64,000 bases of DNA from Nitrospirota bacterium (GCA_021784575.1 JAJYHX010000001.1:413917-477916), one strand, 5' to 3'. Positions 12,976 through 59,344 are shown, numbered from the stretch's first letter. Numbers and translations: made by a program. Notes: a model not told the origin generated them from the sequence alone.

Positions 12976-13058
12976 AGTCCGTTAAAGGTCAGCCCTTGTT
13001 GGTATATAATTGAGACACAGGGTTCCCGGACTGTCAAACAGTTAAAAGAGGTCCCCCT

Positions 13059-13799: not shown

Positions 13800-13805
13800 G
13801 GAGAT

Positions 13806-35425: not shown

Positions 35426-35874
35426 CTGAGCTATTTCGCGCAACACGGATTTTATGTTTGAGTGAGAACGCAGGACAAGGCTTGCCGGGCATATGATAAT
35501 TCAATAATTGTTATGAGTATATAAATATAATTTTAGACCCGCAGGGAAATCGGCCGCAGGCTGACCTGAAGATGTAATCCCTTGATTATTCAATAAATTA
35601 TTAATCAAGGCGGAATGACTTCCATGTGGATTGTAATTTTGGGAGGGGGAGTGCAGAAATGTGTTTTAAAGCTATAATAACCCGATTTTGCTTGGATTTT
35701 TCGCCATAGCGTTAATGCGGCGGAGGGGATTATGAGTTAAGCTATGATAAAAATGGGAGATGCTGTTTTCCGGGAAAGGCATGGGAATTGCATCCCTATT
35801 GGGATGGCTTCAGTGCAACTTAATAGTAAAAAATCCTGAAAACGGATTTTTTTAATAGGTTTGGAGGTAGGAAA

Positions 35875-37551
35875 ATGAAGGGTGGATACTTCGTGAAACC
35901 GTTGTTGTTTGCTTTAGTTTTCGGGGTGTTTATTGCCGGAGCGGTCCCGGCCTTCGCCGGCGGCGTTAAGTTCATGGGCGGATATCCAAGGCGTGAAGGC
36001 AAGTCCGTCCTTATGCAATGGCTTCCCGTTCACGGGGCATCGGCATACAAGGTCTACCGGGCCGAAGGACGCATGAAGGCCAGGGTCATAGGCGAGCCGA
36101 AGGTCAACAGGTTTATAGACAAGAGCCTCCCGGCGGGCAAGACCCTGCATTATTACGTCTCCGCGGTTATCGGCGGGAAAGAGTCCTCGAAGACGACGGT
36201 ATGGAGCACAACCACCGCCTCGAAGGCGCCTAAAAAAGTCTTTATTCCCCTTAAGACGCCAAGGCTCGCCGGCCTTCATCTGAAGCCGGAGCCCGGCAAC
36301 AAATACTCCGTCGGGATGAGGTGGGAAAACGCCGGCGGGACAAACTTTGTCGGTGTAAATATTTACCGCTCCACCGTAAAAGGCAAGGATTTCGCCCTCA
36401 TAGGCTCATCTTCCAGCGACATGTACAACGACAAAAACGTAAAGCCCGGCATGACATACTACTATGTCGCGACGTCCGTGGACAGCCAGTTCCACGAGAC
36501 CAGATATTCAAACGAGCTTTCGGTATCGATTCCATCTCCCGCAGCGCTGGCGGCTGAGCAGAAACAGGCCGAAAAAGAAGACGAGCCGGTAAAAATGAGG
36601 CCGGCGAAGCTCCTCTTCCGGATACCCGACAGCGAGGAATCTAAAAACAAGGATGAAATACCTTACGCGGCCATGTCCGTGGCCGTCGATGAGGCGGTTG
36701 GACACATATACGTCACTTCAGTGGTCTACGGCGGCGTCCTGGTATACAACCTCGACGGCAAATACCAGTTCGGCATCCGCAAGGACGGCGTGGACGGCAA
36801 GGAAAAATTCGGCACCGCGATGGGCGTGGCTGTCGGCAAGGGCGGCGATATTTACGTGTCCGATTACAGCGGCCCGACGGTAAGCATATTCGATTTCACG
36901 GGCAAGCCCGTCGGGACGATAAACATAGACACCACCAAAATGCCGGAATACAGCGACGTCCTGAGGAACCATGCCAGGAACCACAGCATAGCCATTGCAA
37001 AGGATGGAAGGATGTACATATGCGACCCGGCCGTCAATTCGATACACGTCTATAACGCCGCCAACAACAGACACATAACCGATTTCCGTGGCGCAAGGAA
37101 CGCGATGGAAGAAAAGAAATTCCACACGAAGCTTTTGCTGAACGGGCCGGCATATAGCGCAATACTGAATAATGGAGACCTGGCAATAGTGGATTCCGGG
37201 ATCGCCAGGATTGATGTATTGGACAAAGAGGGGCATCTTGTAAACCATATCGGGGAATACGGCGAGGGCGCGGGCGAACTCTACTTCCCGTCCGGCGTGG
37301 CGGTCGACAGGAAAGGCGATGTTTTTGTCGGACTGGCGCAGTCCCCGAACATACAGGTGTTCAGCCCGGAGGGCAAGTTCCTCTATGCGCTTAGCAATGA
37401 ATCTGCAAACGGGCCTTTGCCGATACAGTCCTCCGGCGGCCTGGCCGTAGACAGCCACGACAGGCTTTACGTGGCCGAGACGATGGCCGGCAGGGTCTCG
37501 GTATTCCAGCTTCAGGGGAATACCAGGGACATTAAGACGGGAGTAAAGTAA
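35875..37551 (+). CDS. Secreted NHL-repeat beta-propeller protein with two N-terminal fibronectin-III-like domains (paralog 1)
   Basis: Signal peptide MKGGYFVKPLLFALVFGVFIAGAVPAFA; FN3 signatures (YKVYRAEG...LHYYVSAV; VNIYRSTVKG...MTYYYVATSVD); ~6 NHL blades (GHIYVTSVVYGGVLVYNLDGKYQFG, GDIYVSDYSGPTVSIFDFTGKPVG, GRMYICDPAVNSIHVYN, GDLAIVDSGIARIDVLDKEGHLV, GDVFVGLAQSPNIQVFSPEGKFL, DRLYVAETMAGRVSVFQ). Confidence 0.7.
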   Translation: MKGGYFVKPLLFALVFGVFIAGAVPAFAGGVKFMGGYPRREGKSVLMQWLPVHGASAYKVYRAEGRMKARVIGEPKVNRFIDKSLPAGKTLHYYVSAVIGGKESSKTTVWSTTTASKAPKKVFIPLKTPRLAGLHLKPEPGNKYSVGMRWENAGGTNFVGVNIYRSTVKGKDFALIGSSSSDMYNDKNVKPGMTYYYVATSVDSQFHETRYSNELSVSIPSPAALAAEQKQAEKEDEPVKMRPAKLLFRIPDSEESKNKDEIPYAAMSVAVDEAVGHIYVTSVVYGGVLVYNLDGKYQFGIRKDGVDGKEKFGTAMGVAVGKGGDIYVSDYSGPTVSIFDFTGKPVGTINIDTTKMPEYSDVLRNHARNHSIAIAKDGRMYICDPAVNSIHVYNAANNRHITDFRGARNAMEEKKFHTKLLLNGPAYSAILNNGDLAIVDSGIARIDVLDKEGHLVNHIGEYGEGAGELYFPSGVAVDRKGDVFVGLAQSPNIQVFSPEGKFLYALSNESANGPLPIQSSGGLAVDSHDRLYVAETMAGRVSVFQLQGNTRDIKTGVK

Positions 37552-37681
37552 TCGTTTTCTTTGGAGTATCAAGGTATTGAGAGATTATGGAATCTATAAA
37601 TTTCGACAAGGAAGGGAGGTGAAGATTTTTTAGGGAGAAGTATCGTTAGCGCATTTTTTTCAATCAAACAGGAGAGTAGAG

Positions 37682-40609
37682 ATGAAAAGATTATTAACGG
37701 TTCTAATCGCGGCGGCGGTGGTGCTTACGGCCTACCCGGCGTTCGCGATGATTCTCGGGTCGCCGCACGACTTCACTGGGCAGGCAGGCGCCGGCACCTA
37801 CGTTTACGGCACCTGCGATACATGCCACGTGCCGCACGCCGCGAAAGAGAGAAAACGTTTGTGGAATAACGTCACCGGCATTACAATAGGAGGCACCCCT
37901 TGGGGCAGCACCACGAAGGGCATAGGCCTTCTCTGCGGAAGCTGCCACTATGGAAACGCTTTTACGGTCGCGAACATTGGAGGCAGGCCGGCTGACAATA
38001 TGGCCAATCTTGCCTATGCCGCCACCTCTCACGGCGACAACCTGGGTGTCCTCGAAGGAACCGCCGCGGGCGACCTCAACGACACCGCTGGCGCCGCGCC
38101 CGACGCGACCCTGCCTTACACCCAGACCGCATCGAACACCATCGAATGCACCTCGTGCCACAACCCGCACCAGGACGGCGGCCCGGGCGGCGAAGCCAGT
38201 CCAAGCACCGGCATCAGGCCGTTCCTTCGCGCCGATACCGGCGTCACCGACATTTCCGATTTCTGCGCCGAGTGTCATAAGTCGAGGGTAAACAACCCGG
38301 TCAATTCCCTCAGCACAAACGACTACCAGAACGGCGACCCGACAGGCGCAGCGACGGCTTCAATGTCGGACTTTACCAGGAACCACCCGGTAAATGTTCT
38401 GTATGGCGACGACCCATCTAACGGCATCGGCTGGTTCAAGAACCAGCCTGCCGGCGGCCCGCTCACGACCGTCGTCTACGGCAAAAATGCGACCAACAAC
38501 GCCCTCATCGGCTGGTCCCTGGGCGGCAAGATGCAGAACACCGACGGCAGCATTCCGTCAACCGCATATACTGAAAACGCCGGCAGTACTCCCGATGCAA
38601 ATAACGTATTGGGCGGCACGAGCCAGGGAGCGCAGCAAATAGGCTGCATGACCTGCCACTCCATACACAAGCCTGGCGACAGCAACGGGTATGTAGGGTC
38701 TGACGCGGGTCTGAGCACCGGAACCGGTAGCTATCAGGCTCTCTGGCTTCTTGCGGTGGGCAACAGCGGCCAGGGCGGCGATTACAGGTCTGACCTCTGC
38801 GAGACCTGCCACGGCCAGGCTATTTCGACAAGCGCCACCACCTGGGATACGAGGGCGGGCGGCGTTGCGCCGAGCACCACTGGAGGCTATGACCACCCGA
38901 TAGACGGCCCGATTGCCGGCACATATCTCACCACCTTCATCACCGCATGGTCTATGGAGACAAACGGCAATACCACTTTCGGCCTTAACAGCCTCCGCAC
39001 CAGGGCCGAGCGCGTGCCGGCCGGCACATCTGCCACATGGCCCGCGGGCAACATGGGGTCTGCCACGCCCCAGATTATTTGCACCTCCTGCCACAGCGCC
39101 CATCATGCCGGGTCAAGGCTGAGGAGGATGAATGGTGATGTGAATGACTGGTGCAAGTCCTGCCATCCGTCGGTATCTCCGCTCGGGCATCACTCCAATC
39201 ACGCGAACGACTACCTTTCGGTGCTCGTGTGCTCAAACTGTCATACCGATGTGCCGGCTCTGAGCGGCGGCACGTATACTGTAAATGGGGTCGCTGAGAC
39301 CTCGTCAGGCCTGGCCCATAACGGCTTCGTCTACTATAACCTTGGCGGCGACAATATGGGCTCCACCCCGCTTGCCACCAATACAAATGGTGTGACTGTT
39401 TCCGAACCGTCTACGCAGTTGGCCAATGGATCCGGCTGTTCCTACTGCCATGCTATCGCGAAGGAACAAATAACATATCCGAATACTCAGAGTGCTACTA
39501 ATCCCGGTTATGCGGTGCCGCCGGTAAACAGGCTGGGCGACGTGACTAATTCGTATCAGGTGAACCACTACCTCGGCCAGTTTGACACCAACGCCAAGTC
39601 TGGTGTATCCATAAACGTCAAGACCGGGGCCTGGAACAGCTACCAGATGCTCCCGAACCACAAGGGCGAGCAAAGGGACTACTCCAAGTTCGGCAATTCC
39701 ACCGGCATCGGGAAGCGCGCAGCCGGCTGGTTACTCACCTGCGAGTCCTGCCATTCGATACTCGGCAACATAGGCAGGGAGGCGCCGGGACAAGGAGCGC
39801 CGATACTCGCCGGCATATCGTCCGGATGGGAGAACAACCTGCTCCTGGAGGACTACCAGGACGACAGCTACTACGGCAATGGAGCGGCAAGCGATCCTAC
39901 GTCCACCACAGCGACTGCTGGTGTAAACGCCGGCAACGGGATCACCTGGGCGACCCAGGCGAACGCCCTGAGCGTCGGTTCCGGTCTGTGCATAGCCTGT
40001 CATAATCAGGGCGGCGCACAGTACAACCAGGGCGCGGCCAACGGCACGGTGCCGGACTACGCAATTCAGGATCCTACGGTTGCGCCTCTGAACATGCACC
40101 CGATGACCGGATGGTCGATAACCAGGGCTCAGGACGCGGGCAGGACAACCGGTAACGGTTTCTTCCTGACCACGGACCAGGATGGGACAACCGATGACCT
40201 TTCTTACGCCAACAACCCGCAGCTTACTACCGGAGGCGCTTATGGGACGACTGGCGCTCCGGCGAAGAAGACCGGCGGATCGGTCGGGCTTGGCGCGGGT
40301 GAGGGCGCGGTATCCTATCCCGTAACTCCGGGCTCGTTGCATACGTCGAACGGCGATCCCCTTACATACTCTGGCGCTATGGACTGCGACAGCTGCCACA
40401 GGCCGCACAACGCGCCTTCCGGCGCCTGGTTGCCCGCGTCCGAAATAAAGACGCGCACACTCAGCAGCAGCGCCATCGGGAACGGCGCAGTCGATACCAC
40501 GGTGACAGGGGCTGTGGGTGTGCCGGTTATACTTGAGTACGCTAATACCGCTCAGGGTACCACCGCTGACAATACCGGGACCCTGTGCGAGCAGTGTCAC
40601 AGCTATTAG
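37682..40609 (+). CDS. Secreted multiheme c-type cytochrome, 975 aa, 14 CXXCH motifs arranged as paired (doubled-CXXCH) units, Gly/Thr/Ser/Asn-rich (cytochrome A)
   Basis: Signal peptide MKRLLTVLIAAAVVLTAYPAFA. Haem motifs CDTCH, CGSCH, CTSCH, CAECH, CMTCH, CETCH, CTSCH, CKSCH, CSNCH, CSYCH, CESCH, CIACH, CDSCH, CEQCH. Recurrent CxxCHxPH(xx) context as in TIGR01905 paired-CXXCH domains. N-terminal GSPHDF motif shared with cytochrome B. Confidence 0.75.
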   Translation: MKRLLTVLIAAAVVLTAYPAFAMILGSPHDFTGQAGAGTYVYGTCDTCHVPHAAKERKRLWNNVTGITIGGTPWGSTTKGIGLLCGSCHYGNAFTVANIGGRPADNMANLAYAATSHGDNLGVLEGTAAGDLNDTAGAAPDATLPYTQTASNTIECTSCHNPHQDGGPGGEASPSTGIRPFLRADTGVTDISDFCAECHKSRVNNPVNSLSTNDYQNGDPTGAATASMSDFTRNHPVNVLYGDDPSNGIGWFKNQPAGGPLTTVVYGKNATNNALIGWSLGGKMQNTDGSIPSTAYTENAGSTPDANNVLGGTSQGAQQIGCMTCHSIHKPGDSNGYVGSDAGLSTGTGSYQALWLLAVGNSGQGGDYRSDLCETCHGQAISTSATTWDTRAGGVAPSTTGGYDHPIDGPIAGTYLTTFITAWSMETNGNTTFGLNSLRTRAERVPAGTSATWPAGNMGSATPQIICTSCHSAHHAGSRLRRMNGDVNDWCKSCHPSVSPLGHHSNHANDYLSVLVCSNCHTDVPALSGGTYTVNGVAETSSGLAHNGFVYYNLGGDNMGSTPLATNTNGVTVSEPSTQLANGSGCSYCHAIAKEQITYPNTQSATNPGYAVPPVNRLGDVTNSYQVNHYLGQFDTNAKSGVSINVKTGAWNSYQMLPNHKGEQRDYSKFGNSTGIGKRAAGWLLTCESCHSILGNIGREAPGQGAPILAGISSGWENNLLLEDYQDDSYYGNGAASDPTSTTATAGVNAGNGITWATQANALSVGSGLCIACHNQGGAQYNQGAANGTVPDYAIQDPTVAPLNMHPMTGWSITRAQDAGRTTGNGFFLTTDQDGTTDDLSYANNPQLTTGGAYGTTGAPAKKTGGSVGLGAGEGAVSYPVTPGSLHTSNGDPLTYSGAMDCDSCHRPHNAPSGAWLPASEIKTRTLSSSAIGNGAVDTTVTGAVGVPVILEYANTAQGTTADNTGTLCEQCHSY

Positions 40610-40640
40610 TGGGTTGTGCCGGAAACTGACAACCATGACG

Positions 40641-40671
40641 AAAGGAGGGCCGCATGGCCCTCCTTTTTTTA
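40641..40671 (+). terminator. Rho-independent terminator after cytochrome A
   Basis: aggagggcc-gcat-ggccctcct followed by TTTTTTT. Confidence 0.75.
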
Positions 40672-40684
40672 AGGACGCAAAGGG

Positions 40685-40713
40685 CACGTCCTGATTGACT
40701 TGCGGAGCATTCT
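40685..40713 (+). promoter_or_regulatory. Near-consensus sigma-70 promoter upstream of the PPIase gene (TTGACT-17 nt-TATTAT)
   Basis: ttgacttgcggagcattctcctgtattat; -35 at 40685..40690, -10 at 40708..40713. Confidence 0.5.
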
Positions 40714-40817
40714 CCTGTATTATACCTAAGGCAAATTGCCGTTATTCCGGAAAGCGTTATGGGGAAGCGGCGTACCGGAGTTGGTTGATTAAAACAGCGT
40801 TTTGGAGGTTTTAAAAA

Positions 40818-42398
40818 ATGCGTCTCCCTGACAGAAAAAAATGGCTGACGGCGCTCCTGGCCGGATTGGTGATTTTGTCCGCTTTGAGCCAGGGCTGCGT
40901 CAGAACCCGACATTTCGGCAAGGGAGTGCTGGCGACCATCGATAATCAACCGCTTACCGTGGAAGAGTATAAAATCGTTGTCGGGAGGATACCGACGGAT
41001 TTCAAGAAAAGAAAGCGCAGGCTTCAGCAGATGATAAGCACGAGGCTCCTTGCGGAAGAGGCGCTTGCGAAAGGCTATCTCGGGACGTCCGCGGTTTACT
41101 GGGGCATGCAGAGGTTTTATTACTTCAGGCTGCCCGAACTGTTAAAGTGGGATGTCTACAATAAAATCAAGGTGGACAAGAACAAGCTGGACGCCATAAG
41201 AAAGGCAATGAATCTCCAGACGGTGGTGCATGTCAAGATGCTTGTCGCGCCGACGATAGGGAGGGCGCAGGCGGCGCTTAGCGACCTCGAAAAAGGCGAG
41301 AAATTTGAAGACGTGGCGGCAAAGTATACGGTCGTGAAGTCGGATGTCAGGCACGAGATAAGCCTCGACGATTCTCTTTATCCCATCGGGGTCAGGGCGA
41401 TATTAAACCGCACGAAACCCGGCCAGCTCACGCCGCCGATGAAGCTTGACATCGGCTACGCCGTGATGCAGGTGCAGTCGAAAGACGACCCGGCCGCCGT
41501 ATGGAAGTCCGTGGAAGACAGAATGGCGGGGAACCTGAAACAACAGGAAATGAAAAAAGAGATGGCGGATATACTTGCCCGGCTTCGTTCCACCGCCAAG
41601 ATAAAGATATATTCACAGAAGAACAAGCAAGGACAGACAATATATACCGGCGCGGAGGTCAACGGCATAAATATAAACATGAACCCGCGCCTCTTCAAGC
41701 GGCAGAACAACCCTCATTTCGCGCACACGATGATGAACGCCCAGACACTGATGGCAGCGCTCAACGAAAGAATCAACGACATACTTTACACCGAGGAGGC
41801 GAAGGCGCGCGGCCTCCAGTACAACCCAAGGTTCAGGGAAGACGTGCGGCTGAAGAGGGAGGAGGTGCTTGCGGATTGTTACCTTGAGGCGATGGTAGGA
41901 AACAATACCGCAACTCCGCAGGATATAGAGAACTATTACGAAAAATATAAAAAGAGACACGAACAGAACCGGCTTGCGCGCATAAGCCACATACTGCTTC
42001 CGAGCGAGAGCCAGGCGGAGACGGTTCTCTCAGAATTGAAAAAAGGAAAGGATTTCGCCCGGCTTGCAAAAGAAATGTCGCTCGACCTGCCGACAAAAAA
42101 CGCCGGCGGCGTTGTCGGTTTTATCGATCCGAAAACCCTGAAGGAACCGATGAAGAGCGTTATCATGGGAATGAAGCCCGGAGAGATAAGCGGGATTGTA
42201 AAAGGCCCGGCTGGGTACGAAATAGTGAAGGTGACCGAGTGGAAAAACGAGATCGTGCCGCCGCTTTCCGAGATAAAGGACGAGATGACAAACAGGGTAC
42301 TCTTGAACAAGCGCTCGGACAAAGTGACGGCGCTTTATAAGGTGGTTTACGCAAAGCACAAGGTCGAAATAAACGAGCAGCTTCTAAAGTCGCTGTAA
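40818..42398 (+). CDS. Periplasmic parvulin-type peptidyl-prolyl cis-trans isomerase (SurA/PrsA/PpiD-like chaperone), probable lipoprotein
   Basis: 526 aa; signal plus Cys (LVILSALSQGC); SurA-N-like region; PpiC rotamase domain (ARISHILLPSESQAETVLSELKKGKDFARLAKEMS...GGVVGFI). Confidence 0.65.
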   Translation: MRLPDRKKWLTALLAGLVILSALSQGCVRTRHFGKGVLATIDNQPLTVEEYKIVVGRIPTDFKKRKRRLQQMISTRLLAEEALAKGYLGTSAVYWGMQRFYYFRLPELLKWDVYNKIKVDKNKLDAIRKAMNLQTVVHVKMLVAPTIGRAQAALSDLEKGEKFEDVAAKYTVVKSDVRHEISLDDSLYPIGVRAILNRTKPGQLTPPMKLDIGYAVMQVQSKDDPAAVWKSVEDRMAGNLKQQEMKKEMADILARLRSTAKIKIYSQKNKQGQTIYTGAEVNGININMNPRLFKRQNNPHFAHTMMNAQTLMAALNERINDILYTEEAKARGLQYNPRFREDVRLKREEVLADCYLEAMVGNNTATPQDIENYYEKYKKRHEQNRLARISHILLPSESQAETVLSELKKGKDFARLAKEMSLDLPTKNAGGVVGFIDPKTLKEPMKSVIMGMKPGEISGIVKGPAGYEIVKVTEWKNEIVPPLSEIKDEMTNRVLLNKRSDKVTALYKVVYAKHKVEINEQLLKSL

Positions 42399-42423
42399 CA
42401 TCAGCACCGAGGTTTACGCACTA

Positions 42424-44052: not shown

Positions 44053-44054
44053 CC

Positions 44055-46181: not shown

Positions 46182-46189
46182 GGGATACA

Positions 46190-48481: not shown

Positions 48482-48492
48482 GAGAGTCGGCT

Positions 48493-50928
48493 ATGAAGAT
48501 GAAAATGACGAAGACAAAAACGGTTCTACTTTTTGCGGTGTTCGCGCTTGTTGGCGTTGCCGCAGGGCTGCCCGCCGAGGCTGCGCCGGCGACCGCGCGT
48601 ATCGTGCCTGCGCGGATGCGTCCGCAGATGGCGGCGCGCGTGTTTGCGCCGGAAACGTCCGTGCATATGCAGAGGTTCGCGCCCGGGCATATGTCCATGC
48701 CCATGCGTATGCCGGCGCAGATTCGTCCATGGCAGAGGCCCGCGCCCGGGCAGGCATCCACGCCCATGCGTATGCCGGCGCAGATTCGTCCGATGCAGAG
48801 GCCCGTGCCCGCGCAGACCAGTCCGGTGCGGAGGTCCGCGTCCGGGCAGACCAGTCCGCAGGCGCCTGCGCAGAAGCCCGTCTCCGGCCAAACGTCCGCC
48901 GCCGGTCAAACCGCCCCGGCCGGTAAAAGCGGCGGGCCTGGCATAAAGCTTCAATGGAAGGCCCCCGCCGGCATTGCCGTGTCGAAGATAGCGGGGTACT
49001 ACATCCTGCGCGCCGACAAAGAGCTTGGGCCGTATAAAAGAATAAACGAAAGCCCTGTCAAGACGCTTTCGTACGACGATAAGGGCCTGAAAGACAAGGC
49101 GGGGTATTTCTACGAGGTTTGCACGGTTTTGCAAAACGGCACGATGAGCCGCCCCACGAAGCCTGTCGGGATAATTGTCGGAAGCAAGCAGACGTACGCG
49201 CCGCCGCGGATAGAATCCTTTGGCGCGGATTCCGCCGGGAAAGTCAGATATGCCGGAGAGACCGCGTTTTTCAACATGAGCGGGACTCCGGGAGACAACG
49301 CGGTTTTTTCCATCGAAGGTCAGACAGGCGGGATAACGACGCCCGGCACGCAGATAACGATGAAGGAGATAACGCCCGGCGTTTACAGGGGCGCATACAC
49401 CGTGGCGCGCGGCGTCCGGATAATAAACGGTTATGCGGCGGCTACATTGTCGGATGACAAGGGAGGGCAGGCTGCCGCAAAGACCGGCGCCAACCTCGAT
49501 TTTATCGGGATGGCCAAACCGGCAATCTCCGGACTTTACGCAAGCCGGATTACAAGCGACAGCGTGTGCGTCGGCTGGCCCCGCGTCGACACCGGCGAAG
49601 GATATTACAACCTGTATCGGGACACCTCGCGCATAGTGGACGCCAGCAAACTTACCCCGCTGTCTGCGAACATGAACACCAGCGTATCCACATTCATAGA
49701 CGATTCCGTAAAGGCGGGGACAAGCTACTACTATGTCCTGGTTTACGACGATCTTTCGGGCGCGCCGCTCGCCATAAGCGATAACCTGGAAGTCAATGTC
49801 CCGTGGATGCATGTTTCATTCGGAGCAAACTCCGTGCATGAAGACTCCGGAGGGAAAACCCTGAAGCCCGGAGACGTCCTCGGCGTAACCGTGAACACGG
49901 CGGCCGGCGGCAAGGCGGCATTCAGTATAAGCAATACGGCCAGCAACCTTGCGCTGACGGAAGGCCCGGCCGGGGTCTACAAGGGCGCGTGGACGATAAA
50001 GGAGGGCGACGGGATATTCAAGAGCAGGGTGGCCGTGAATTTTACGGCCCCTGACGGCAGACAGCATTCCGCGCTGTCCGCAACGCTTGTCTCCGTGGAC
50101 GCCCCGAAGGCAAATCAAGTGAAGCCCGCCGTTCTTGCGGCCTCCGTGAAAACCATTGGGGGCAGGAATCCGGTACTGGTCAATAGCAGAAATCCAGCCG
50201 GGATTAATAAGAAGCTGCCCGGAGCCGGGAAGCCGGTTATCGCCGGGATTAAAGGCAACGTCAGGGTAATTCCGGGGCCGCCGGGCAGGCCGGCAGCCGG
50301 AAAGAAACTTACCGTATTGCCCGGGAAGGCGGGAAGAACGTCAATCATCACAACCGGAGGGCTTGCCTCAAGACCCGGCGGTGTCATCGGCGCGGCGCAG
50401 GCGGCGAAGAGCGCATCAATCATCACGGGCGGGAGGCCTGACTCAATACCGCGTGGGCTGCCGTATGAATTTCAGAAGCCGGAACCCCGGCCATCTCCTG
50501 CTCCGGGAATGCATTCTCCGGCTTCGGGAATACAAAGGGCCGGCGGCTCGTTTCCGGGCAGGCCGGCGGAAAGCGCCGGAACCCCGGCGAACGCTGTGAA
50601 CCCGATTGGCGTTGTAAACCCGGCAGGCACTGTGGCCCCGATTGGCGTTGTGAACCCGCTTGGCGCTGTAAACCCGGCAGGCACTGTGGCCACGATTGGC
50701 GTTGTGAACCCGCTTGGCACGGTGAACGCGGCGGGCGCGGGGAATGCTGCCGCGGGGCCTGTCTCAAGCCTTCCGGCGCCGTCGCATGGGAAGAAAAAAC
50801 CGGGAACTCCGCAGTCTCCGGCTTCGGGAACACAGTCTCCGGTTCCGGGAATGCAGTCTCCGGTTCCGGGAATGCAAAAGGCCGGCGGCTCGGTTCCGGG
50901 CCACGGCGTTTCGGCCTTTGGAGACTGA
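48493..50928 (+). CDS. Large repetitive secreted/surface protein (~811 aa) with FN3-like and Ig-like domains, N-terminal Met/Pro/Arg-rich repeats and C-terminal NPxGxV repeats
   Basis: Signal peptide MKMKMTKTKTVLLFAVFALVGVAAGLPAEA. Repeats MPMRMPAQIRP(W/M)QRP x2; FN3-like (GYYILRADKELGPY...; GYYNLYRD...SYYYVLVYDD); two Ig-like modules; C-terminal tandem (NPIGVVNPAGTVAPIGVVNPLGAVNPAGTVATIGVVNPLGTVN) mirrored by ~60-nt DNA tandem repeats at ~50590..50720 and ~48700..48830. Confidence 0.55.
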   Translation: MKMKMTKTKTVLLFAVFALVGVAAGLPAEAAPATARIVPARMRPQMAARVFAPETSVHMQRFAPGHMSMPMRMPAQIRPWQRPAPGQASTPMRMPAQIRPMQRPVPAQTSPVRRSASGQTSPQAPAQKPVSGQTSAAGQTAPAGKSGGPGIKLQWKAPAGIAVSKIAGYYILRADKELGPYKRINESPVKTLSYDDKGLKDKAGYFYEVCTVLQNGTMSRPTKPVGIIVGSKQTYAPPRIESFGADSAGKVRYAGETAFFNMSGTPGDNAVFSIEGQTGGITTPGTQITMKEITPGVYRGAYTVARGVRIINGYAAATLSDDKGGQAAAKTGANLDFIGMAKPAISGLYASRITSDSVCVGWPRVDTGEGYYNLYRDTSRIVDASKLTPLSANMNTSVSTFIDDSVKAGTSYYYVLVYDDLSGAPLAISDNLEVNVPWMHVSFGANSVHEDSGGKTLKPGDVLGVTVNTAAGGKAAFSISNTASNLALTEGPAGVYKGAWTIKEGDGIFKSRVAVNFTAPDGRQHSALSATLVSVDAPKANQVKPAVLAASVKTIGGRNPVLVNSRNPAGINKKLPGAGKPVIAGIKGNVRVIPGPPGRPAAGKKLTVLPGKAGRTSIITTGGLASRPGGVIGAAQAAKSASIITGGRPDSIPRGLPYEFQKPEPRPSPAPGMHSPASGIQRAGGSFPGRPAESAGTPANAVNPIGVVNPAGTVAPIGVVNPLGAVNPAGTVATIGVVNPLGTVNAAGAGNAAAGPVSSLPAPSHGKKKPGTPQSPASGTQSPVPGMQSPVPGMQKAGGSVPGHGVSAFGD

Positions 50929-51007
50929 AATTTATATAACTGGCCGTAAAGACATGGCGTAAAGGCATTGGGGACCTGTGAAAATATTCCCGACCCTGTC
51001 TGGGAAA

Positions 51008-52813
51008 ATGCTCTTTGTAAAGTATTGGCCCGCGGTTGTGGCGGGGGCCGCGGTGTTTTTTGCCCTGTTCTCAAACCCGATGCTCTCTTTTGCCGCGATG
51101 AGCTACGGAACGGATTTATCTTATCAGCAGAACAGTTCGACCAGCGGCAGTATTACCAGCAGCAACGCCCAGGAGCGGTTCGGAGCCTATTTCGACATGC
51201 TGTCCGCGCCAAACTCCAAACTGACGCTTACCGGGATATTCCGCCTGGACGTTGTCAGGAATACGGCAAATGCCGGGAGCAAGAGCTTCGAGCTCGACCC
51301 GGATGTCGCCGTCAATATGTCCACCAGGGCGACGCAGATTGGCGTCGGCTACACGGATATTAACGTGACCAACAATATCATAACAAACGGACAGACCCAG
51401 ACCCAGACGACGAAAGCCACGGATATGTACGCGGACTCCGCTTTTGCCAGCGGGAACCTTCCGGCGCTCAGGGTCAGATACGACGCGCGCAACCAGAACC
51501 AGTCCGCCTCGGGCTCGCCGTCCAGCGACACGAAGACGGGAGCGTTCGACGTGTCGACTAATTACAGGATCGGCATAATTGCGTTTAGCGGCGATTACAA
51601 CAACCAGGCGACAACGACCAACACGACCGGACAGACCCAGGATACGACCTCTATAAACGGCCAGGTCAGCGCGGCGAAAAGTTTTGGAAGCAGATTTACC
51701 GCAGGCGTGAGCGAGAATTACAACTACGCGCTCGCCACCACTGACGGCCAGGCCAATTCCAAGGCCTATAATTCAATATCCGATTTGACTGCGTCATATG
51801 TGCCTATTGCCGGGGCGCAGGTTTCGGGGAGCTATCTATACAGGTTGTCGGAAGACCTCCTCAATGCGTCCGGCACCGGCAGGACCACCCAGAGCACGTA
51901 TTTCAGCTCGGCCAGTTACGCATTTCCGAAATATCTCCGGCTCTACGGTTCGTATATCCTGAACGACTCATCGGGGGGGATAAGCTCGTCCTCGAGCCAG
52001 ACGCTCGGCGGAATGGACCTGATCCACCACGTAGGCATATTTACCTTCAGCTCAAGGTACGAAAAGAGATTCGACACAAACAGCAGCCAGGGGAGCGCCT
52101 CGACTTCGGATACTCAGGACAACGTGGACTGGCTTATCTCCGCCCATCCGTCCATGTTCCTCAACATGGCCCTCTCCGAATCGTACGTCAATTCCTCGAA
52201 CTCATCCAACACGGGCAGTTCGTCAAACGAATTCAGGTTTATGACCAACATCGGCCCGATAAAGAACCTGTCCATGAACCCTTACTGGGACTATACGGTA
52301 TCGGCCACATCTCCCGGTTCTTCCTCGACCAACAATATGGATATGGTTATCCCGGTGATGTATGTGCTGAGCCTGCGGCAGAGGTTGATGATGAATTTCT
52401 CAGACATGTACAGGATGGCATGGGCCGGCGGCACAGGCGCGGCCACCACGTCTACAACCCAGAACAACGCGGTTGTAAGGCTTTCTCTCGCAAGGCCGCT
52501 GCCCAACACGATGTTGACCGCCGACGCGGCCTTCAACACCTCATGGGGCACCAACGCGCAAGCCGTCACGACCAGCTCATATTCTCTCATGGGAAGCTGG
52601 TTTGATCAGCCGCACGCGCTGAACTTCAATTTAATGTATCAGCCGGCGTCCTTGTCTCCGGCCACCATGAATTTGGCCGCGCAGTACAGCCTCGGCGTAA
52701 GGCTCAGGAACCTGGCCGTGAGCTTGCAGGCGCGGTATAGCTACTCACAGGTTTTTACATCCGAAAGGAACAATTCACAGGCGATTTACCTTTCGTTAAG
52801 TATCAGGAAATAA
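51008..52813 (+). CDS. Putative outer-membrane beta-barrel protein (Ser/Thr/Asn/Gln/Tyr-rich, amphipathic beta-strand pattern)
   Basis: Signal peptide MLFVKYWPAVVAGAAVFFALFSNPMLSFA; many alternating hydrophobic/polar strands (RFTAGVSENYNYAL, YLRLYGSYILND, AVVRLSLARPL, NLAVSLQARYSYSQVF, AIYLSLSIRK). No terminal Phe, so beta-barrel assignment is tentative. Confidence 0.4.
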   Translation: MLFVKYWPAVVAGAAVFFALFSNPMLSFAAMSYGTDLSYQQNSSTSGSITSSNAQERFGAYFDMLSAPNSKLTLTGIFRLDVVRNTANAGSKSFELDPDVAVNMSTRATQIGVGYTDINVTNNIITNGQTQTQTTKATDMYADSAFASGNLPALRVRYDARNQNQSASGSPSSDTKTGAFDVSTNYRIGIIAFSGDYNNQATTTNTTGQTQDTTSINGQVSAAKSFGSRFTAGVSENYNYALATTDGQANSKAYNSISDLTASYVPIAGAQVSGSYLYRLSEDLLNASGTGRTTQSTYFSSASYAFPKYLRLYGSYILNDSSGGISSSSSQTLGGMDLIHHVGIFTFSSRYEKRFDTNSSQGSASTSDTQDNVDWLISAHPSMFLNMALSESYVNSSNSSNTGSSSNEFRFMTNIGPIKNLSMNPYWDYTVSATSPGSSSTNNMDMVIPVMYVLSLRQRLMMNFSDMYRMAWAGGTGAATTSTTQNNAVVRLSLARPLPNTMLTADAAFNTSWGTNAQAVTTSSYSLMGSWFDQPHALNFNLMYQPASLSPATMNLAAQYSLGVRLRNLAVSLQARYSYSQVFTSERNNSQAIYLSLSIRK

Positions 52814-52917
52814 AGAGTGAATTCAATCTTTAAAAATTTTTAATTTTCAAAGATTGATGTTGCAAATCAATTATAGCTATGATAAAAAGTCAAACTGGGG
52901 GAGGGGGAGCGTTTATT

Positions 52918-53697
52918 ATGCGAATTAGTATCAGGTTTCTTCTTTTTGCATGTCTGGCGGTTTTATTTCTTGCTGGTTGCGGAAGCGGGACGACCCGTCT
53001 TTTTACCAAGCCTATCGCCGAATCCACTTACGTGACATATCCGGAATGGGGCCCCGACTGCGACGTCGCGGTTATGCCTTTCGTGAACGTGTCCAAGGAC
53101 AAGGATGCGGGCCTTAAGGCGCGCGATCTCTTCGTTACCGAGCTCTATATCTCCGGCGCCTTCAAGGATGTCGTGGACGAGGGCCAGATGGTCGAGGTAA
53201 TGAAGAAGCTTAAGCTTAGGGAGACCGACAACATCGGCAAGGACACGCTGAAGACCCTTGGGGACAGCTTGGGCGTTCAGGCCGTCATATTCGGCACGGT
53301 CGAGGTGTACAACGAACGGTCCACCCAGGGCGCGCAATTCGCGGTATCGTTGCGCATGGTGGATGTCGATACCGGCCAGATACTCTGGCTCGGGGACGCG
53401 TCCAAGGAGGGCGGCGGGACGGTTTCCGAGGCCCTGGGGCTTTCCAGCGGCCCGCCCGTAATCGACGTTGCGCGCGACGTCATGAGCGGCCTCGTGGACG
53501 ACCTTGCGAGTGAAATAAGGGACAGGAAGGTAACGGGTAAAAAGGCCCTTGCGCTTTTAAAGAGAGAGAAGATGGGAAATGTATTGAAGGCCAAGGTGAA
53601 TAGCGCGCTCGTCCCGAACCAGCAGGCCGGAGCTGTGCCGCCGCCCGCCGTTAAAAGCAACTCCGCGGGCATAACGCCTGCGCCGGTCGTTCCTTAA
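52918..53697 (+). CDS. Lipoprotein of the LpoB/CsgG/TolB-N-like fold family (PF-type VAVMPFxNxS motif)
   Basis: Lipobox LFLAGCGS with ATG at 52918 and RBS gggggaggggga. VAVMPFVNVSKDKDAGLKARDLFVTELYISGAFKDVVDEGQ...AVIFGTVEVY matches the conserved LpoB/CsgG-like core. Pro/Ala-rich C-terminal tail. Confidence 0.45.
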   Translation: MRISIRFLLFACLAVLFLAGCGSGTTRLFTKPIAESTYVTYPEWGPDCDVAVMPFVNVSKDKDAGLKARDLFVTELYISGAFKDVVDEGQMVEVMKKLKLRETDNIGKDTLKTLGDSLGVQAVIFGTVEVYNERSTQGAQFAVSLRMVDVDTGQILWLGDASKEGGGTVSEALGLSSGPPVIDVARDVMSGLVDDLASEIRDRKVTGKKALALLKREKMGNVLKAKVNSALVPNQQAGAVPPPAVKSNSAGITPAPVVP

Positions 53698-53749
53698 GAT
53701 GGGGTGGCGGGAAAATACCGTGATTCCCGGATGACGATGTTTCATTGTT

Positions 53750-53832
53750 CGTCATTCCCGCGAAGGCGGGAATCCAGTGACTTTAAAAATCGCTGGGCCC
53801 CCGTTTAAAGACGTCCGGGGATGACAGGCTTT
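53750..53832 (+). repeat. MITE-like repeat family A copy in the spacer upstream of NHL paralog 3
   Basis: cgtcattcccgcgaaggcgggaatccagtgactttaaaaatcgctgggcccccgtttaaagacgtccggggatgacaggc. Confidence 0.6.
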
Positions 53833-53896
53833 AAAATTCGCGGGCACGGGTATTAATAACGAGAACAGGGGTTTTAAGTATAAAATGCGTATATCC

Positions 53897-55381
53897 ATGA
53901 AGAATATAAAAACTGTTGCGGTATATGCGGCCTTCGCCCTTGCAGTCTGGGGCTGCGGCCACAGCACGGTGGTCGTGGGGCGCCGGGCCGAGATTAAAGG
54001 CATAAAACCCCAGGAGCAGTCCCAGCCTTCGGTATCGGCGAAGTCCGCCAAGGCCGCCGGCCGGAAACAACAGTCCGTCCTCGCGGGCGCAAAAGGCGGC
54101 GCGATGGGCATGGGCGGGCCGTCCGGCGCGAAAGCATCGACTGCCAAGGTTGCCGCCAATATGCTGCCGCAGTCTTCGCCGGCAAGGCCGCGGCCCGCGC
54201 CTCCGAAAGAGGAAGCAAAGTCAAAATCCGGCCCCGCGCCATACAAGCTCGACCTCTCCTTCGGCGGTTTCGGGCTTGGGATAGGGCTTTTCGATACGCC
54301 CGTGGCCGTTGCGGTGGACGACCAGGAAAATATGTATGTCGTTGACCAGGGTAACTACCGCATACAGAAGTTTGACCGTTTCGGCCTCTTCCAGTTCGCA
54401 TTCGGCAGGCAGGGCATGGGAGAGGGGGAGTTTGCGCAATCCATGACGACCCCCACGGCCCTGCGCGAGACCGGCGAGTTCGAGTTCAACAAGCCCGTCG
54501 GGATATACCTCGACCAGGACCGCACCAGGAACCTGACCAGGATACAGGTTGTGGACTCTCTGAACAACCGCATACAGCGTTTCCTCGTCGCGTCCAACGT
54601 ATCGGACTTCATGAATGTGTACAACCCCTTCGACGCAAGTCCGCCGAACGTTTTTATCATGCTCACAAAAACCGGGAATGCGGTCGATACGGCCCTGCAC
54701 GACAAGTTCCTTGCGGAGAACAGGCTCGTCATACTCGACCCGCTATACCTCCAGGACATTGCGGGAAAGGCCAACGCATTCCTGCTTACTCCGTTTATAT
54801 GGGGTGGGCTGGGCTTCACGCAGGGCCAGCTTAACCAGCCGACATATCTTACAATGGACGAAAACAACGTCCTTTGGGTTTCCGACACCGGGAACGGACG
54901 CGTGGAAGGCTTCAATGTAAGCGAGTCCAACCCCGCGGTCGATGCGACATATTTCCGCGAGTTCGGAAACGACACGAACCTCTCTTACGGCAAGGGCAGG
55001 CTCAATCAGCCGACCGCCATCGCCTACGATAACGAGGGACTCGGCGGGTTCCTTGTCCTCGACAAGCTCCCGGACGGCACTTACGCAATCGAGAAATTCG
55101 ACAGAGACGGCCGTTTCAAGGGGATATTTACCAAATCCGGCGACAAGGAAGGACAGTTGAAAGAGCCGGTTGACATCGCCCTGAGCCCTTTCGACAATAC
55201 CTGTTTCGTTACGGACAGGGGCAGGCGGAAGGTTATGGTCTACAACAACAAGGGCGTGTTCATGTACGAGTTCGGCGGCAACGAGCTGGCGGATCCGAGG
55301 GGCATAACGGTCTTAAGGAACGGCTATGTCTATGTTACGGACGCCGCCAAGAACATGGTCTACCGGTATGTCCCGCAATAA
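53897..55381 (+). CDS. Secreted/lipo NHL-repeat beta-propeller protein (paralog 3; lacks FN3 domains, has Ala/Lys/Gly-rich linker)
   Basis: MKNIKTVAVYAAFALAVWGCGHS signal; NHL blades (ENMYVVDQGNYRIQKFDRFGLFQFAFG, TRIQVVDSLNNRIQRF, NNVLWVSDTGNGRVEGFN, FLVLDKLPDGTYAIEKFDRDGRF, NTCFVTDRGRRKVMVYNNKGVFM, GYVYVTDAAKNMVYRY). Confidence 0.65.
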   Translation: MKNIKTVAVYAAFALAVWGCGHSTVVVGRRAEIKGIKPQEQSQPSVSAKSAKAAGRKQQSVLAGAKGGAMGMGGPSGAKASTAKVAANMLPQSSPARPRPAPPKEEAKSKSGPAPYKLDLSFGGFGLGIGLFDTPVAVAVDDQENMYVVDQGNYRIQKFDRFGLFQFAFGRQGMGEGEFAQSMTTPTALRETGEFEFNKPVGIYLDQDRTRNLTRIQVVDSLNNRIQRFLVASNVSDFMNVYNPFDASPPNVFIMLTKTGNAVDTALHDKFLAENRLVILDPLYLQDIAGKANAFLLTPFIWGGLGFTQGQLNQPTYLTMDENNVLWVSDTGNGRVEGFNVSESNPAVDATYFREFGNDTNLSYGKGRLNQPTAIAYDNEGLGGFLVLDKLPDGTYAIEKFDRDGRFKGIFTKSGDKEGQLKEPVDIALSPFDNTCFVTDRGRRKVMVYNNKGVFMYEFGGNELADPRGITVLRNGYVYVTDAAKNMVYRYVPQ

Positions 55382-56624
55382 GCCTGTAATTGTCCTCTTT
55401 GCGCTGTTTTTGTTTGTCTTAGCAATCCCTCTCGCAAGGTCAGCGGCTGCCGGAACGAAGGCGCGGAATGGTGTCACATCCGGGGCCGGCTCTCCGCGGG
55501 ACCGCTCCCACGCAGGGTCAAAGACCGACAAAGTGAAGACGCAGGGCAAAGGCGTGCTCGTGCTCGTGCCCGAGAACCTTTCCGCCGTCTACTCCGAAAC
55601 CGAGCTCTCCGGGGCCCGGCGGCGCGAGGTCTCTGTCCAATCCACCACAGAAGGAGAGATTTCGGTGGTGGGAATAGCGGACGGCAAGCCGGAGATAGAG
55701 ATAGTAAATAACGGCAGGTCCAAGGTAACGCCGGTATTTTACGGCAAGTATTTCCACGCGCAGATTATCCTGTCGCTCGGCGAGAACATGATAAGCGTGC
55801 GCTGGAGAAGGAAGGGCGGGGACTGGAATGTCCAGACCATTTCGCTTTTCCGCTCCTCCAGGATGCTCGGCGCGCCGGTTGTAAACTACCCGCCTTATTC
55901 CTTTCACACTCCCAAGAACGAAGAGCAGTGCCAGGAGTGCCACCAGATGCAGCTTACGCGTAAGGAAATAGAAACGGCAAGGGACTTGAGCTGCCTTAAG
56001 TGCCATGCCGACCTGACGAGCAATATTTACGTCCACGGCCCGGTAAACGTGGGCATATGCACGGTATGCCACGACCCGAACAGCAAGCCGAACAAATACA
56101 AGGTGGAGGAAGGCGACAAGACACTGTGCTACTCCTGCCACACGGACAGGGAGAAGATAGACGACAAGATGAAGCGCGAGCACGGCCCCGTAGGCGCGGG
56201 GCTTTGCACTGTATGCCACGACCCTCACGGCTCGCCATTCAGGTATCAGCTTGTTAAATCCAAAAACGAGATATGCCTGATGTGCCATCAGAGCGATGCG
56301 AACCACTGGCTAAACCAAAGCAGCCTTCATCCGCCGTTTAAAAAGGGAGAATGCTACAGGTGCCACGACCCTCATTCCGCGAACTATAAATACAACCTCA
56401 AGGCCGACAGGAAGCATATCTGCTTGATTTGTCATACCCTTCCCATACCCGGCCATCTTCACGACCCGGGCAAGGTGCCGCTTTTCAAGCTGCCGCCGGA
56501 TTTTCCCCTTACAAAACATGGGAAAACGATGTGTCTGACCTGCCACTCCCCACATGGCGCCATAGGCCCGCACCTGACCCGCCGGAGGGGTTGCAAGGGC
56601 TGCCATCCGGACAAGGACTCGTAG
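55368..56624 (+). CDS. Periplasmic decahaem c-type cytochrome (~418 aa, 10 CXXCH; MtrA/OmaB-like size class) (cytochrome D)
   Basis: ATG at 55368 overlapping NHL3 end; signal/TM MSRNKPVIVLFALFLFVLAIPLARSAAAG; CQECH, CLKCH, CTVCH, CYSCH, CTVCH, CLMCH, CYRCH, CLICH, CLTCH, CKGCH. Confidence 0.7.
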   Translation: MSRNKPVIVLFALFLFVLAIPLARSAAAGTKARNGVTSGAGSPRDRSHAGSKTDKVKTQGKGVLVLVPENLSAVYSETELSGARRREVSVQSTTEGEISVVGIADGKPEIEIVNNGRSKVTPVFYGKYFHAQIILSLGENMISVRWRRKGGDWNVQTISLFRSSRMLGAPVVNYPPYSFHTPKNEEQCQECHQMQLTRKEIETARDLSCLKCHADLTSNIYVHGPVNVGICTVCHDPNSKPNKYKVEEGDKTLCYSCHTDREKIDDKMKREHGPVGAGLCTVCHDPHGSPFRYQLVKSKNEICLMCHQSDANHWLNQSSLHPPFKKGECYRCHDPHSANYKYNLKADRKHICLICHTLPIPGHLHDPGKVPLFKLPPDFPLTKHGKTMCLTCHSPHGAIGPHLTRRRGCKGCHPDKDS

Positions 56625-56646
56625 GCCGGCCGCTCGGTTTCAAAAT

Positions 56647-56679
56647 AAAAAAAGCCCCGTAAAAACGGGGCCTTTTTTA
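56647..56679. terminator. Bidirectional rho-independent terminator (A-run, GCCCCG-loop-CGGGGC, T-run) closing the cytochrome cluster and the convergent small gene
   Basis: aaaaaaagccccgtaaaaacggggcctttttt. Confidence 0.8.
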
Positions 56680-56690
56680 TGTCTTTCCGG

Positions 56691-58866: not shown

Positions 58867-58867
58867 T

Positions 58868-59344
58868 TTGCCGCCACAGAGAAGATACTGGGATTCAGAT
58901 TGTTTTTTGGCTTATCTTGGAGAAGATACCGGAAAACGCGGTAAATGCTTAGGTGTGCTTGATGCCGCCGAAAAAGGTGATGTGCTGATAATTACCTCCG
59001 CCCTTACCATTGCAGAGGTCGTTTATCTCAAAGGCAATCCTAAAATTACTCCCGAAAAATCTGATAAAATTTGCCGCTTTTTCGAAAACAAATATATCCA
59101 GCCAATTAACTTAGACCGTTATCTCGCTGAAGAAGCAAGACAACTCTTGTGGATACACCCGGCACTAAAACCAAAAGATGCAATTCATGTGGCGAGCGCT
59201 ATCCGCGCAAAAGTCCATTTGATGGACACTTTCGATAAATATCTTATTGGATTAAGTGGTAAAATAGGAGACAATCCTCTTATTATTGGAGAGCCAAACA
59301 TACCCTATGAAGAAGATATGTTTAAAGGACTCGAAGAAAACTAA
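58868..59344 (+). CDS. PIN-domain protein (VapC-like ribonuclease toxin)
   Basis: 158 aa; acidic PIN residues in conserved positions (WDSDCFLAYL, ITSALTIAEV, PKDAIHVASAI, LMDTFDKYL); starts 1 nt after previous stop. Confidence 0.6.
   Translation: MPPQRRYWDSDCFLAYLGEDTGKRGKCLGVLDAAEKGDVLIITSALTIAEVVYLKGNPKITPEKSDKICRFFENKYIQPINLDRYLAEEARQLLWIHPALKPKDAIHVASAIRAKVHLMDTFDKYLIGLSGKIGDNPLIIGEPNIPYEEDMFKGLEEN

Follow-up and report, generated by a model that had tools for sequence, protein, structure and literature searches.

A predicted module for very large multihaem cytochromes in Nitrospirota, with distant likeness to the Geobacter osc and omcE loci

RESULTS

Eleven co-directional genes for multihaem cytochromes and predicted accessory proteins

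We analysed a 64,000-nt stretch of DNA from a Nitrospirota bacterium (the window, whose coordinates are used throughout), with attention to a cluster of multihaem cytochrome genes that a first-pass annotation, made from the sequence alone, had described as a candidate system for extracellular electron transfer. Consistent with that description, open reading frame (ORF) scanning and translation found eleven plus-strand ORFs, all co-directional, spanning 35875..56624. To choose the likely start of each gene we used ribosome-binding sites and signal peptides. The features are listed below with product lengths in amino acids (aa); names beginning with Osc refer to proteins of the Geobacter osc locus, which is set out in a later section.

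35426..35874, no strand assigned: leader/regulatory region, AT-rich, upstream of the first gene, NHL1
35875..37551, plus strand: NHL1, secreted NHL beta-propeller whose N-terminal region is Fn3-like, 558 aa
37682..40609, plus strand: cytA, cytochrome with 14 CXXCH whose N-terminus is an OmcE-like tetrahaem module, 975 aa
40818..42398, plus strand: peptidyl-prolyl isomerase (PPIase) chaperone with two parvulin stretches, predicted periplasmic and membrane-tethered, OscH-like, 526 aa
42424..44052, plus strand: NHL2, secreted NHL beta-propeller that begins with Fn3-like domains, 542 aa
44055..46181, plus strand: cytB, tetradecahaem cytochrome in which a ten-haem extension follows an OmcE-like N-terminal module, 708 aa
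46190..48481, plus strand: cytC, cytochrome with 14 CXXCH and 1 CX4CH, about 763 aa
48493..50928, plus strand: Fn3/Ig-like secreted repeat protein (Ig protein), with Pro/Ala/Gln-rich tandem repeats at both ends, 811 aa
51008..52813, plus strand: predicted large outer-membrane beta-barrel, putative distant OscE relative, 601 aa
52918..53697, plus strand: lipoprotein of LpoB/CsgG/GNA1162 fold, lipobox LAGC, OscF-like, 259 aa
53885..55381, plus strand: NHL3, NHL beta-propeller lipoprotein, lipobox VWGC, 498 aa
55368..56624, plus strand: cytD, paired-CXXCH decahaem cytochrome whose N-terminal domain of 190 aa is free of haem, OscJ/OscI/MtrA-like, 418 aa
56645..56680, plus strand: intrinsic terminator from a terminator scan, A-run, 7-bp GC stem and T-run, the same on both strands

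Several of these starts lie inside longer ORFs. The cytC ORF opens at a TTG at 46154, with the ATG at 46190 as the likely start; the lipoprotein ORF opens at 52879 and its gene start was placed at 52918; and the cytD ORF runs from 55326, with the start taken at 55368.

CytA and CytB each carry 14 CXXCH motifs, CytC carries 14 together with one CX4CH, and CytD carries 10. The cluster total of 52 CXXCH and one CX4CH, or 53 haem sites, agrees with the first-pass figure of 53 or more, and the His counts of the four cytochromes (32, 38, 39 and 25) suffice for bis-His ligation of all haems. The paired-CXXCH, NHL and Rotamase families named in that annotation were each matched in the expected proteins: Paired_CXXCH and related Pfam cytochrome models scored above cut-off in all four CXXCH-rich products, which thus do resemble known cytochromes c, NHL was found in the products of 35875, 42424 and 53885, and Rotamase in the PPIase. 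No specific NCBIfam family was found for any of the eleven proteins, and none of the cluster products contains the hematite-binding motif [ST]-hydrophobic-[ST]-P-[ST].

Signal peptides and lipoboxes were judged by eye. Eight products begin with a Sec-type signal peptide (NHL1, CytA, NHL2, CytB, CytC, the Ig protein when started at 48493, the barrel, and CytD when started at 55368) and two carry a lipobox (LAGC in the 52918 product and VWGC in the 53885 product). The earlier statement that every product has one or the other holds for these ten; the hydrophobic N-terminus of the PPIase ends in a non-canonical SQGC.

OmcE-like modules in the large cytochromes

CytA and CytB are paralogues (E 4e-29 over 500 aa) whose first 170-200 residues make up a module with four CXXCH motifs and eight invariant His, 44% identical between the two. 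When a profile of this module was compared with the PDB, it matched the OmcE filament 7TFS (E 2e-17) and the D. soudanensis OmcE bundle 9YUQ (E 2.3e-13) over the whole OmcE chain, up to the C-terminal CxxCHK, and OmcS (6EF8) only at E 0.004. CytB alone matched 7TFS at E 7e-7 in phmmer. The CxxCHxxH at haem 1 of the module is common to OmcS and OmcE. In both proteins the OmcE-like module is fused to an extension of 540-770 residues with ten more haems. CytC matched the OmcE-like profile over its first three haems only (independent E 3.9e-6). Pfam matches above cut-off in CytA include Paired_CXXCH and the MtrC/MtrF domain II/IV, and CytC matched the MtrC/MtrF II-IV domain (68 bits, also above cut-off), Cytochrome_C7 and the GSu_C4xC__C2xCH motif.

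Exhaustive HMMER searching with CytB returned 711 representatives at E <= 1e-3, of which 38 reached E <= 1e-30. Of the 150 best matches, 88 representatives are 600-850 aa long; 72 of these 88 have exactly 14 CXXCH, and 75 have the N-terminal CxxCHxxH. Judged by these matches the CytB family is real and fairly wide, and no characterised member of it was found in the searches. The relatives P0215-P0364 form a metagenomic family of roughly 700-780 aa, most of which have an N-terminal G-S/T-x-H-D ... CxxCH-V/I-P-H motif; the +3 His is missing from a sub-branch (e.g. P0216-P0219).

The ten CXXCH motifs of CytD are spaced 20-37 residues apart and score 134 bits against Paired_CXXCH. In BLASTP, CytD matched OscJ (31% identity, E 2.5e-24) and OscI (E 6e-24), and its comparison with MtrA (6R2Q_A) gave E 8.5e-10.

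The barrel and accessory proteins have counterparts in the Geobacter osc locus

We obtained the osc locus (L005) by way of the OmcS sequence, identical to PDB 6EF8, which led to Geobacter OmcS and from there to the surrounding DNA. Its gene order is a 315-aa NHL-like protein, omcS, omcT, oscB, oscC, oscD, oscE, oscF, oscG, oscH, oscI, oscJ and oscK. Five genes serve as anchors, omcS (GSU2504), omcT (GSU2503), oscC (GSU2501), oscI (GSU2495) and oscJ (GSU2494) (PMC13194489), and the names between them were read off the gene order. The products include a 1017-aa spermine-synthase-like protein (OscB), a YncE-type propeller (OscD), a 725-aa protein with no Pfam family (OscE), a 199-aa LpoB/GNA1162-like protein (OscF), a rotamase (OscH), cytochromes with 26 (OscI) and 16 (OscJ) haems, and an NHL protein (OscK). 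PMC13194489, in summarising Shen et al. (2025, Cell Chem Biol 32:239), gives the osc cluster as GSU2493-GSU2505, with OscH as a PPIase, OscEFG as channel-like and OscD as a propeller.

The product of 51008..52813 had no Pfam match at E <= 0.01, and hence none to MtrB_PioB, which we take to be PF11854. An AlphaFold2 (AF2) model built with eight close relatives was all-beta with 26 long strands, at low confidence (predicted local distance difference test, pLDDT, 54.5). Upon the addition of 28 OscE relatives to the alignment, the pLDDT rose from 54.5 to 73.3 and the predicted template modelling score from 0.43 to 0.59. Across the AF2 models the barrel has about 26-32 strands, and Foldseek placed MtrB (6R2Q_B) at the top with a TM-score of 0.45, as opposed to 0.2-0.34 for the other listed solved chains. 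The models therefore point, as the first-pass annotation had proposed, to an outer-membrane barrel rather than to a soluble protein, and to a very large one without a close solved homologue. While pairwise BLASTP detected no similarity between the barrel and OscE, profile-profile alignment with hhalign against the OscE family gave a probability of 92-94% (E 2e-7 to 8e-7), co-linear from the signal peptide over about 250 columns, as opposed to 0.2-0.5% for reversed-sequence controls. Independent support for a fold shared with OscE is provided by the jump in AF2 confidence when the OscE relatives were included.

The lipoprotein encoded directly after the barrel matched the Pfam models CsgG (29.7 bits), LpoB (26.7 bits) and GNA1162-like (25.5 bits), and these models together with the LAGC lipobox agree with its earlier naming as LpoB-like. 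It has a full-length alignment with OscF (29% over 195 aa, E 8e-15) and matches OscG at E 2e-6 in BLASTP. Likewise, the assignment of a periplasmic parvulin chaperone stands: the PPIase scores 89.7 bits against Pfam Rotamase in two stretches, with a weak SurA_N match, and is 20% identical to OscH over 494 aa (E 1.2e-8, BLASTP).

The three propellers score 45 (NHL1), 92 (NHL2) and 58 bits (NHL3) against Pfam NHL, and NHL2 also matched the DUF5128 six-bladed propeller. In BLASTP, the Geobacter 315-aa NHL-like protein encoded upstream of omcS, which is presumably GSU2505, was matched by NHL1 (E 2e-9), by NHL2 (E 6e-15) and weakly by NHL3. Matches of the NHL proteins to OscK are at about E 1e-5, including E 9e-6 for NHL1 and a weak match for NHL3. 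The Ig protein has a weak Pfam fn3 match and titin/myomesin Fn3 matches down to E 1e-7; its gene contains tandem repeats with periods of 63, 54 and 21 nt, and its orthologues have Big_1/Invasin_D3 domains. It had been described as a repetitive surface protein, and the Pro/Ala/Gln-rich repeats bear out the repetitive part, with two corrections: the domains are Fn3/Ig-like, and the start lies near 48493 rather than 48220.

Altogether, the window and the osc locus share a secreted PPIase (OscH), a large barrel without a Pfam family (OscE) followed directly by a lipoprotein of LpoB/GNA1162 fold (OscF), beta-propellers that include NHL types (in osc, OscK and the 315-aa protein), paired-CXXCH periplasmic cytochromes (OscI/J), non-lipoprotein extracellular cytochromes with a CxxCHxxH N-terminal motif, and an upstream GT-C glycosyltransferase and TPR protein. 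The two differ in gene order and in several parts. The window lacks the two-domain OscG and has one LpoB-fold gene where osc has two, the insertion in the middle of OscE, which a UniRef name labels an F5/8 type C domain, is missing from its barrel, its cargo is three 14-haem proteins, and the Fn3/Ig repeat protein is an addition.

Nitrospirota also contain the osc locus proper. Positions 1..16918 of locus L014 (GCA_016208845.1, a Nitrospirae metagenome-assembled genome, MAG) hold a canonical osc cluster with an OmcS-like hexahaem and OscD/E/F/G/H/I/J-like genes, whose proteins are 36-55% identical to those of Geobacter. This sequence similarity suggests that the osc system passed laterally, as a whole, between Desulfuromonadia and Nitrospirota.

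Likeness to omcE clusters

Minimal omcE clusters consist of two multihaem cytochromes, two beta-propeller lipoproteins, OmcE and a large beta-barrel; OmcE homologues, which conserve four motifs and four extra His, are present in Nitrospirota, one haem at the OmcE subunit interface is completed by a His of the neighbouring subunit, and a porin-type secretion model is favoured (bioRxiv 10.1101/2025.10.22.684050). By that published description, the window has a counterpart of each item of the minimal cluster. Consistent with this, the CytA/CytB module aligns with the whole OmcE chain, and all 4 CXXCH and 4 distal His are conserved. The neighbourhood is similar as well. In Desulfuromonadia, omcE clusters lie near ffh, often followed by GT2/4/39 and TPR genes (bioRxiv 10.1101/2025.10.22.684050), and in the window the cluster follows ffh at a distance of about 10 kb and adjoins a PMT_2/TMEM260-like GT-C gene. 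In contrast to the omcE clusters, the OmcE-like unit forms only the N-terminal fifth to quarter of a 708-975-aa 14-haem protein, and just one of the three propellers, rather than two, has a lipobox. The PPIase and the LpoB-fold lipoprotein are not listed for the minimal omcE cluster in bioRxiv 10.1101/2025.10.22.684050.

The gene order is conserved among Nitrospirota

Only nine relatives of the barrel were found in a collection of 5.8 billion proteins, and both named ones are from Nitrospirota MAGs. Seven loci came out of a scan in which each GTDB species was represented by one genome, and all seven lie in Nitrospirota/Nitrospirae MAGs. We compared all window proteins with these seven loci and two metagenome contigs by tblastn, leaving out of the synteny comparison one locus (L012) that is apparently frameshift-ridden upstream of the barrel. 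The order PPIase, NHL, cytB, cytC, Ig protein, barrel, lipoprotein, NHL, cytD is conserved in 8 further loci, with the barrels 34-85% identical to that of the window, and every locus of this order that bears an organism name is a Nitrospirota MAG. The haem counts are kept in the orthologues (14; 12-14 plus 1; 10). The barrel is the fastest-evolving member, at 34-39% identity where its neighbours have 55-68%, which is what one would expect of an outer-membrane protein exposed at the surface. When metagenomes were scanned with the PPIase, one short contig was the only result, and on the short metagenome contig L013 a cytA orthologue lies directly upstream of the PPIase gene. Going by the shared gene order, we regard the cluster as a conserved unit, so far confined to Nitrospirota.

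In the omitted locus L012 (MFD01299.bin.2.211, 1..10000), many short plus-strand ORFs precede the barrel orthologue. This looks like frameshift errors in a long-read assembly, not different gene content.

Junctions, regulatory signals and flanking genes

Junctions between the cluster genes range from -14 to 208 nt. Most are short or overlapping, as first described; three gaps of 130-208 nt are not short. The AT-rich region with a hairpin that had been noted ahead of the cluster is also present: the 449-nt leader has 39.9% GC, as opposed to 57.5% for the cluster, and contains two perfect 9-nt inverted repeats (35580-35588/35602-35610 and 35828-35836/35844-35852). The first of these, at 35580..35610, is a palindrome-like pair, CCTTGATTA / TAATCAAGG, with its arms 13 nt apart, and could be an operator. 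The second is an AT-rich hairpin, AAAAAATCC / GGATTTTTT, at 35828..35852, immediately 5' of the ribosome-binding site of the first gene, a GGAGG ahead of 35875. At the other end, RNA folding of the terminator stem (56654..56671) with its flanking A-run and T-run gave -26.6 kcal/mol (z = -4.1), and 0 of 200 shuffles were equally stable; together with the terminator scan, this upholds the strong bidirectional terminator of the first-pass annotation.

The cluster was said to be slightly lower in GC than the housekeeping half of the window. The values do differ in that direction (57.5% as opposed to 59.1% upstream), by a trivial amount, and we rejected horizontal acquisition on the basis of GC content because the difference is negligible. 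GC is clearly lower only downstream, where an IS1595-family transposase, a 251-aa protein of no known kind and a PIN-domain protein (57176..59344, plus strand, 45-49% GC) come right after the terminator. Together the three genes resemble an islet, mobile or of toxin-antitoxin type, at the border of the cluster.

Upstream, the housekeeping genes include those for arginine biosynthesis and an ffh-trmD-rnhB region. The ffh gene (SRP54; 23924..25252, plus strand) is about 10 kb from the cluster; this could be chance or reflect a synteny of long standing. The gene two places upstream of the cluster, 32607..33614 (plus strand), encodes a secreted protein with a thioredoxin fold (AhpC/TSA, ResA-like) and TPRs, including a weak CcmH/CycH-type TPR match. 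It has only 3 Cys, none in a WCxxC context, so that the active-site CxxC is missing, and with these features it may assist cytochrome maturation or assembly without redox activity of its own. Between it and the cluster lies a co-directional gene for a GT-C glycosyltransferase (TMEM260-like/PMT_2; 33629..35425, plus strand), which may hint at glycosylation of the secreted cytochromes. In Geobacter a PMT_2+TPR gene is found upstream of omcS; the window GT-C protein and the Geobacter PMT_2/TPR protein had no pairwise similarity, so the parallel exists at the superfamily level only. The housekeeping half of the window also encodes, unrelated to the cluster, a 1399-aa BadF/BcrA-type CoA-enzyme activase with DUF2229 (2066..6265, minus strand).

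DISCUSSION

The suggestion that the cluster encodes a secreted multihaem system for extracellular electron transfer fits everything that we found. We think it reasonably likely that the cluster is a conserved Nitrospirota module that produces, exports and mounts very large multihaem cytochromes outside the outer membrane, and that it is a distant relative of the Geobacter omcS/osc and omcE nanowire loci. Sequence and profile comparison and gene order provide the composition, the secretion signals (judged by eye), the synteny and the homology of five accessory families and of the cytochrome module. We infer the roles of the parts from those proposed for the Osc proteins, and we also infer the outer-membrane and extracellular location of the cargo and any polymerisation.

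In such a module, all eleven products would cross the inner membrane by Sec, and haems would be attached in the periplasm. The membrane-tethered, OscH-like double-parvulin PPIase would keep the coil-rich apo- and holo-cytochromes competent for folding and export. A barrel of roughly 30 strands, OscE-like and of MtrB-like size, could form the outer-membrane passage and anchor together with the OscF-like lipoprotein on its periplasmic face, while CytD, a presumably rod-like decahaem of OscJ/MtrA type, would bring periplasmic electrons to or through the barrel. The three NHL propellers, one of them a lipoprotein, may act as assembly or shape-control scaffolds, as has been proposed for OscD and OscK. 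The three tetradecahaem cytochromes would be the extracellular cargo and would exchange electrons, in one direction or the other, with an external partner; the OmcE-like N-terminal module may allow them to form head-to-tail oligomers. The Fn3/Ig-like repeat protein probably serves in surface attachment or spacing.

Several observations count against this interpretation. The window and osc proteins are only 20-31% identical, and the window proteins are only 22-33% identical to those of the Nitrospirae osc cluster, about as far from these as from the Geobacter proteins, which indicates that the window cluster is not an osc orthologue. It has no OmcS/OmcT/OscC hexahaem (the best BLASTP match of a window cytochrome is to OmcT, at E 1e-5 and 23%), no match to OscB and no YncE-type OscD (BLASTP to OscD at E 0.01 or worse). 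The link between the barrel and OscE is detectable at the profile level only, and the signal peptides were assigned by eye. The omcE locus entered our comparison through its published description, not its sequence, and the window contains no free OmcE subunit of roughly 230 aa. Because OmcE ends at its fourth haem motif, whereas the window module continues into the fused 540-770-residue extension, head-to-tail polymerisation may be sterically impossible. Finally, the functions of the Osc proteins have the status of proposals in Geobacter too, and the physiological role of the filaments is disputed (PMC11077965).

The strongest competing explanation, which we hold to be somewhat unlikely, is a static porin-cytochrome conduit of the Mtr/Pcc kind, with CytD inside the barrel passing electrons to surface CytA, CytB and CytC, nothing polymerising, and the PPIase, lipoprotein and propellers as general envelope helpers. 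The first-pass annotation had drawn this parallel, and part of it stands. Like MtrCAB, PioAB and MtoAB (PDB 6R2Q), the window combines a periplasmic decahaem of closely spaced, paired CXXCH with a very large outer-membrane barrel and with extracellular multihaem cytochromes that have MtrC/MtrF-like domains, above the Pfam cut-off in CytA and CytC; the MtrA match of CytD, its MtrA-like close haem spacing and the MtrB TM-score of the barrel also favour the parallel. Membership of the Mtr/Pio group, on the other hand, was rejected, because the barrel, the decahaem and the large cytochromes each fall outside the respective family. The barrel does not match MtrB_PioB; CytD reaches 109.3 bits against the DmsE/MtrA family (TIGR03508), for which the cut-off is 192.2, and 88.7 against the NCBIfam GSU2203-family decahaem, with a cut-off of 325; and the large cytochromes reach at best 38.7 bits against the OmcA/MtrC family (TIGR03507), with a cut-off of 209.3, and have no lipoboxes, unlike the lipoproteins OmcA and MtrC. 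The gene order is also unlike that of mtr: the cytD and barrel genes are not adjacent, as in mtrAB or omaB-ombB, but separated by two genes. Five accessory genes of the window are absent from mtr/pcc loci, and the conserved accessory genes, which a plain conduit does not need, have osc counterparts. NHL propellers had been remarked on as foreign to Mtr/Pcc modules. They are indeed not Mtr/Pcc parts, and yet they are no anomaly, since propellers, PPIase, LpoB-fold lipoprotein and large barrel make up the osc/omcE accessory set, and the propellers thus point to the right family. The conduit and the export module overlap in architecture, and the difference between them is one of degree.

Electrons might instead flow inward, the cluster being an uptake system that oxidises Fe(II), Mn(II), a cathode or a partner cell. 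We judge this unlikely. The sequences do not fix the direction, decahaems of the MtrA/PioA/MtoA type work in both directions, and all carriers are uncultured members of the Nitrospirota, a phylum that includes lithotrophs; however, the window has no Cyc2, multicopper oxidase or other oxidation marker, and metal reducers are the source of the closest relatives that have been characterised (OmcE/OmcS and the osc locus). It is very unlikely that the barrel and the Fn3/Ig protein form an adhesin-export pair unconnected with electron transfer, beside cytochromes that serve as periplasmic electron stores or in a soluble-substrate pathway, for although the repeat-protein gene lies directly upstream of the barrel gene and its orthologues have Big_1/Invasin_D3 domains typical of adhesins, intimin/invasin-type barrels have 12 strands as opposed to the about 26-32 modelled here, no catalytic subunit is present, and the 53 haem sites in strictly conserved order and the OmcE-like modules would be left unexplained.

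Within the export-module interpretation, a more specific proposal is that the tetradecahaem cytochromes polymerise head-to-tail via the OmcE-like module into a 'decorated' nanowire of a new class, built by a cargo-independent secretion core. We consider this improbable. If it were true, each subunit would contribute four haems to an insulated core and hold its other ten in a side arm open to minerals or partner cells, and the barrel, LpoB-fold lipoprotein, PPIase, propellers and paired-CXXCH cytochrome would be a general, cargo-independent export and assembly machine across phyla.

Both a 2025 review (PMC12307469) and bioRxiv 10.1101/2025.10.22.684050 regard the passage of cytochrome nanowires across the outer membrane, and their attachment to it, as an open question. 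Porin-cytochrome clusters with OmcE-like cytochromes have been described in peat Acidobacteriota and Verrucomicrobiota (bioRxiv 10.64898/2026.05.27.727921), and since similar clusters appear in other phyla, the general kind is already known. The novelty lies in the combination: accessories of osc type occur together with an Fn3/Ig protein and with OmcE-type modules that are fused into tetradecahaem proteins, all restricted to Nitrospirota. The cluster would be a third, phylogenetically remote example of the accessory set, and the quite different cargo that it carries helps to separate conserved machinery from cargo-specific parts and supplies definite targets for genetic work and for co-folding. 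It also draws attention to a broad family of 14-haem cytochromes whose N-terminus is of OmcE type, and extends candidate extracellular electron transfer to uncultured Nitrospirota of soil, sediment and the subsurface.

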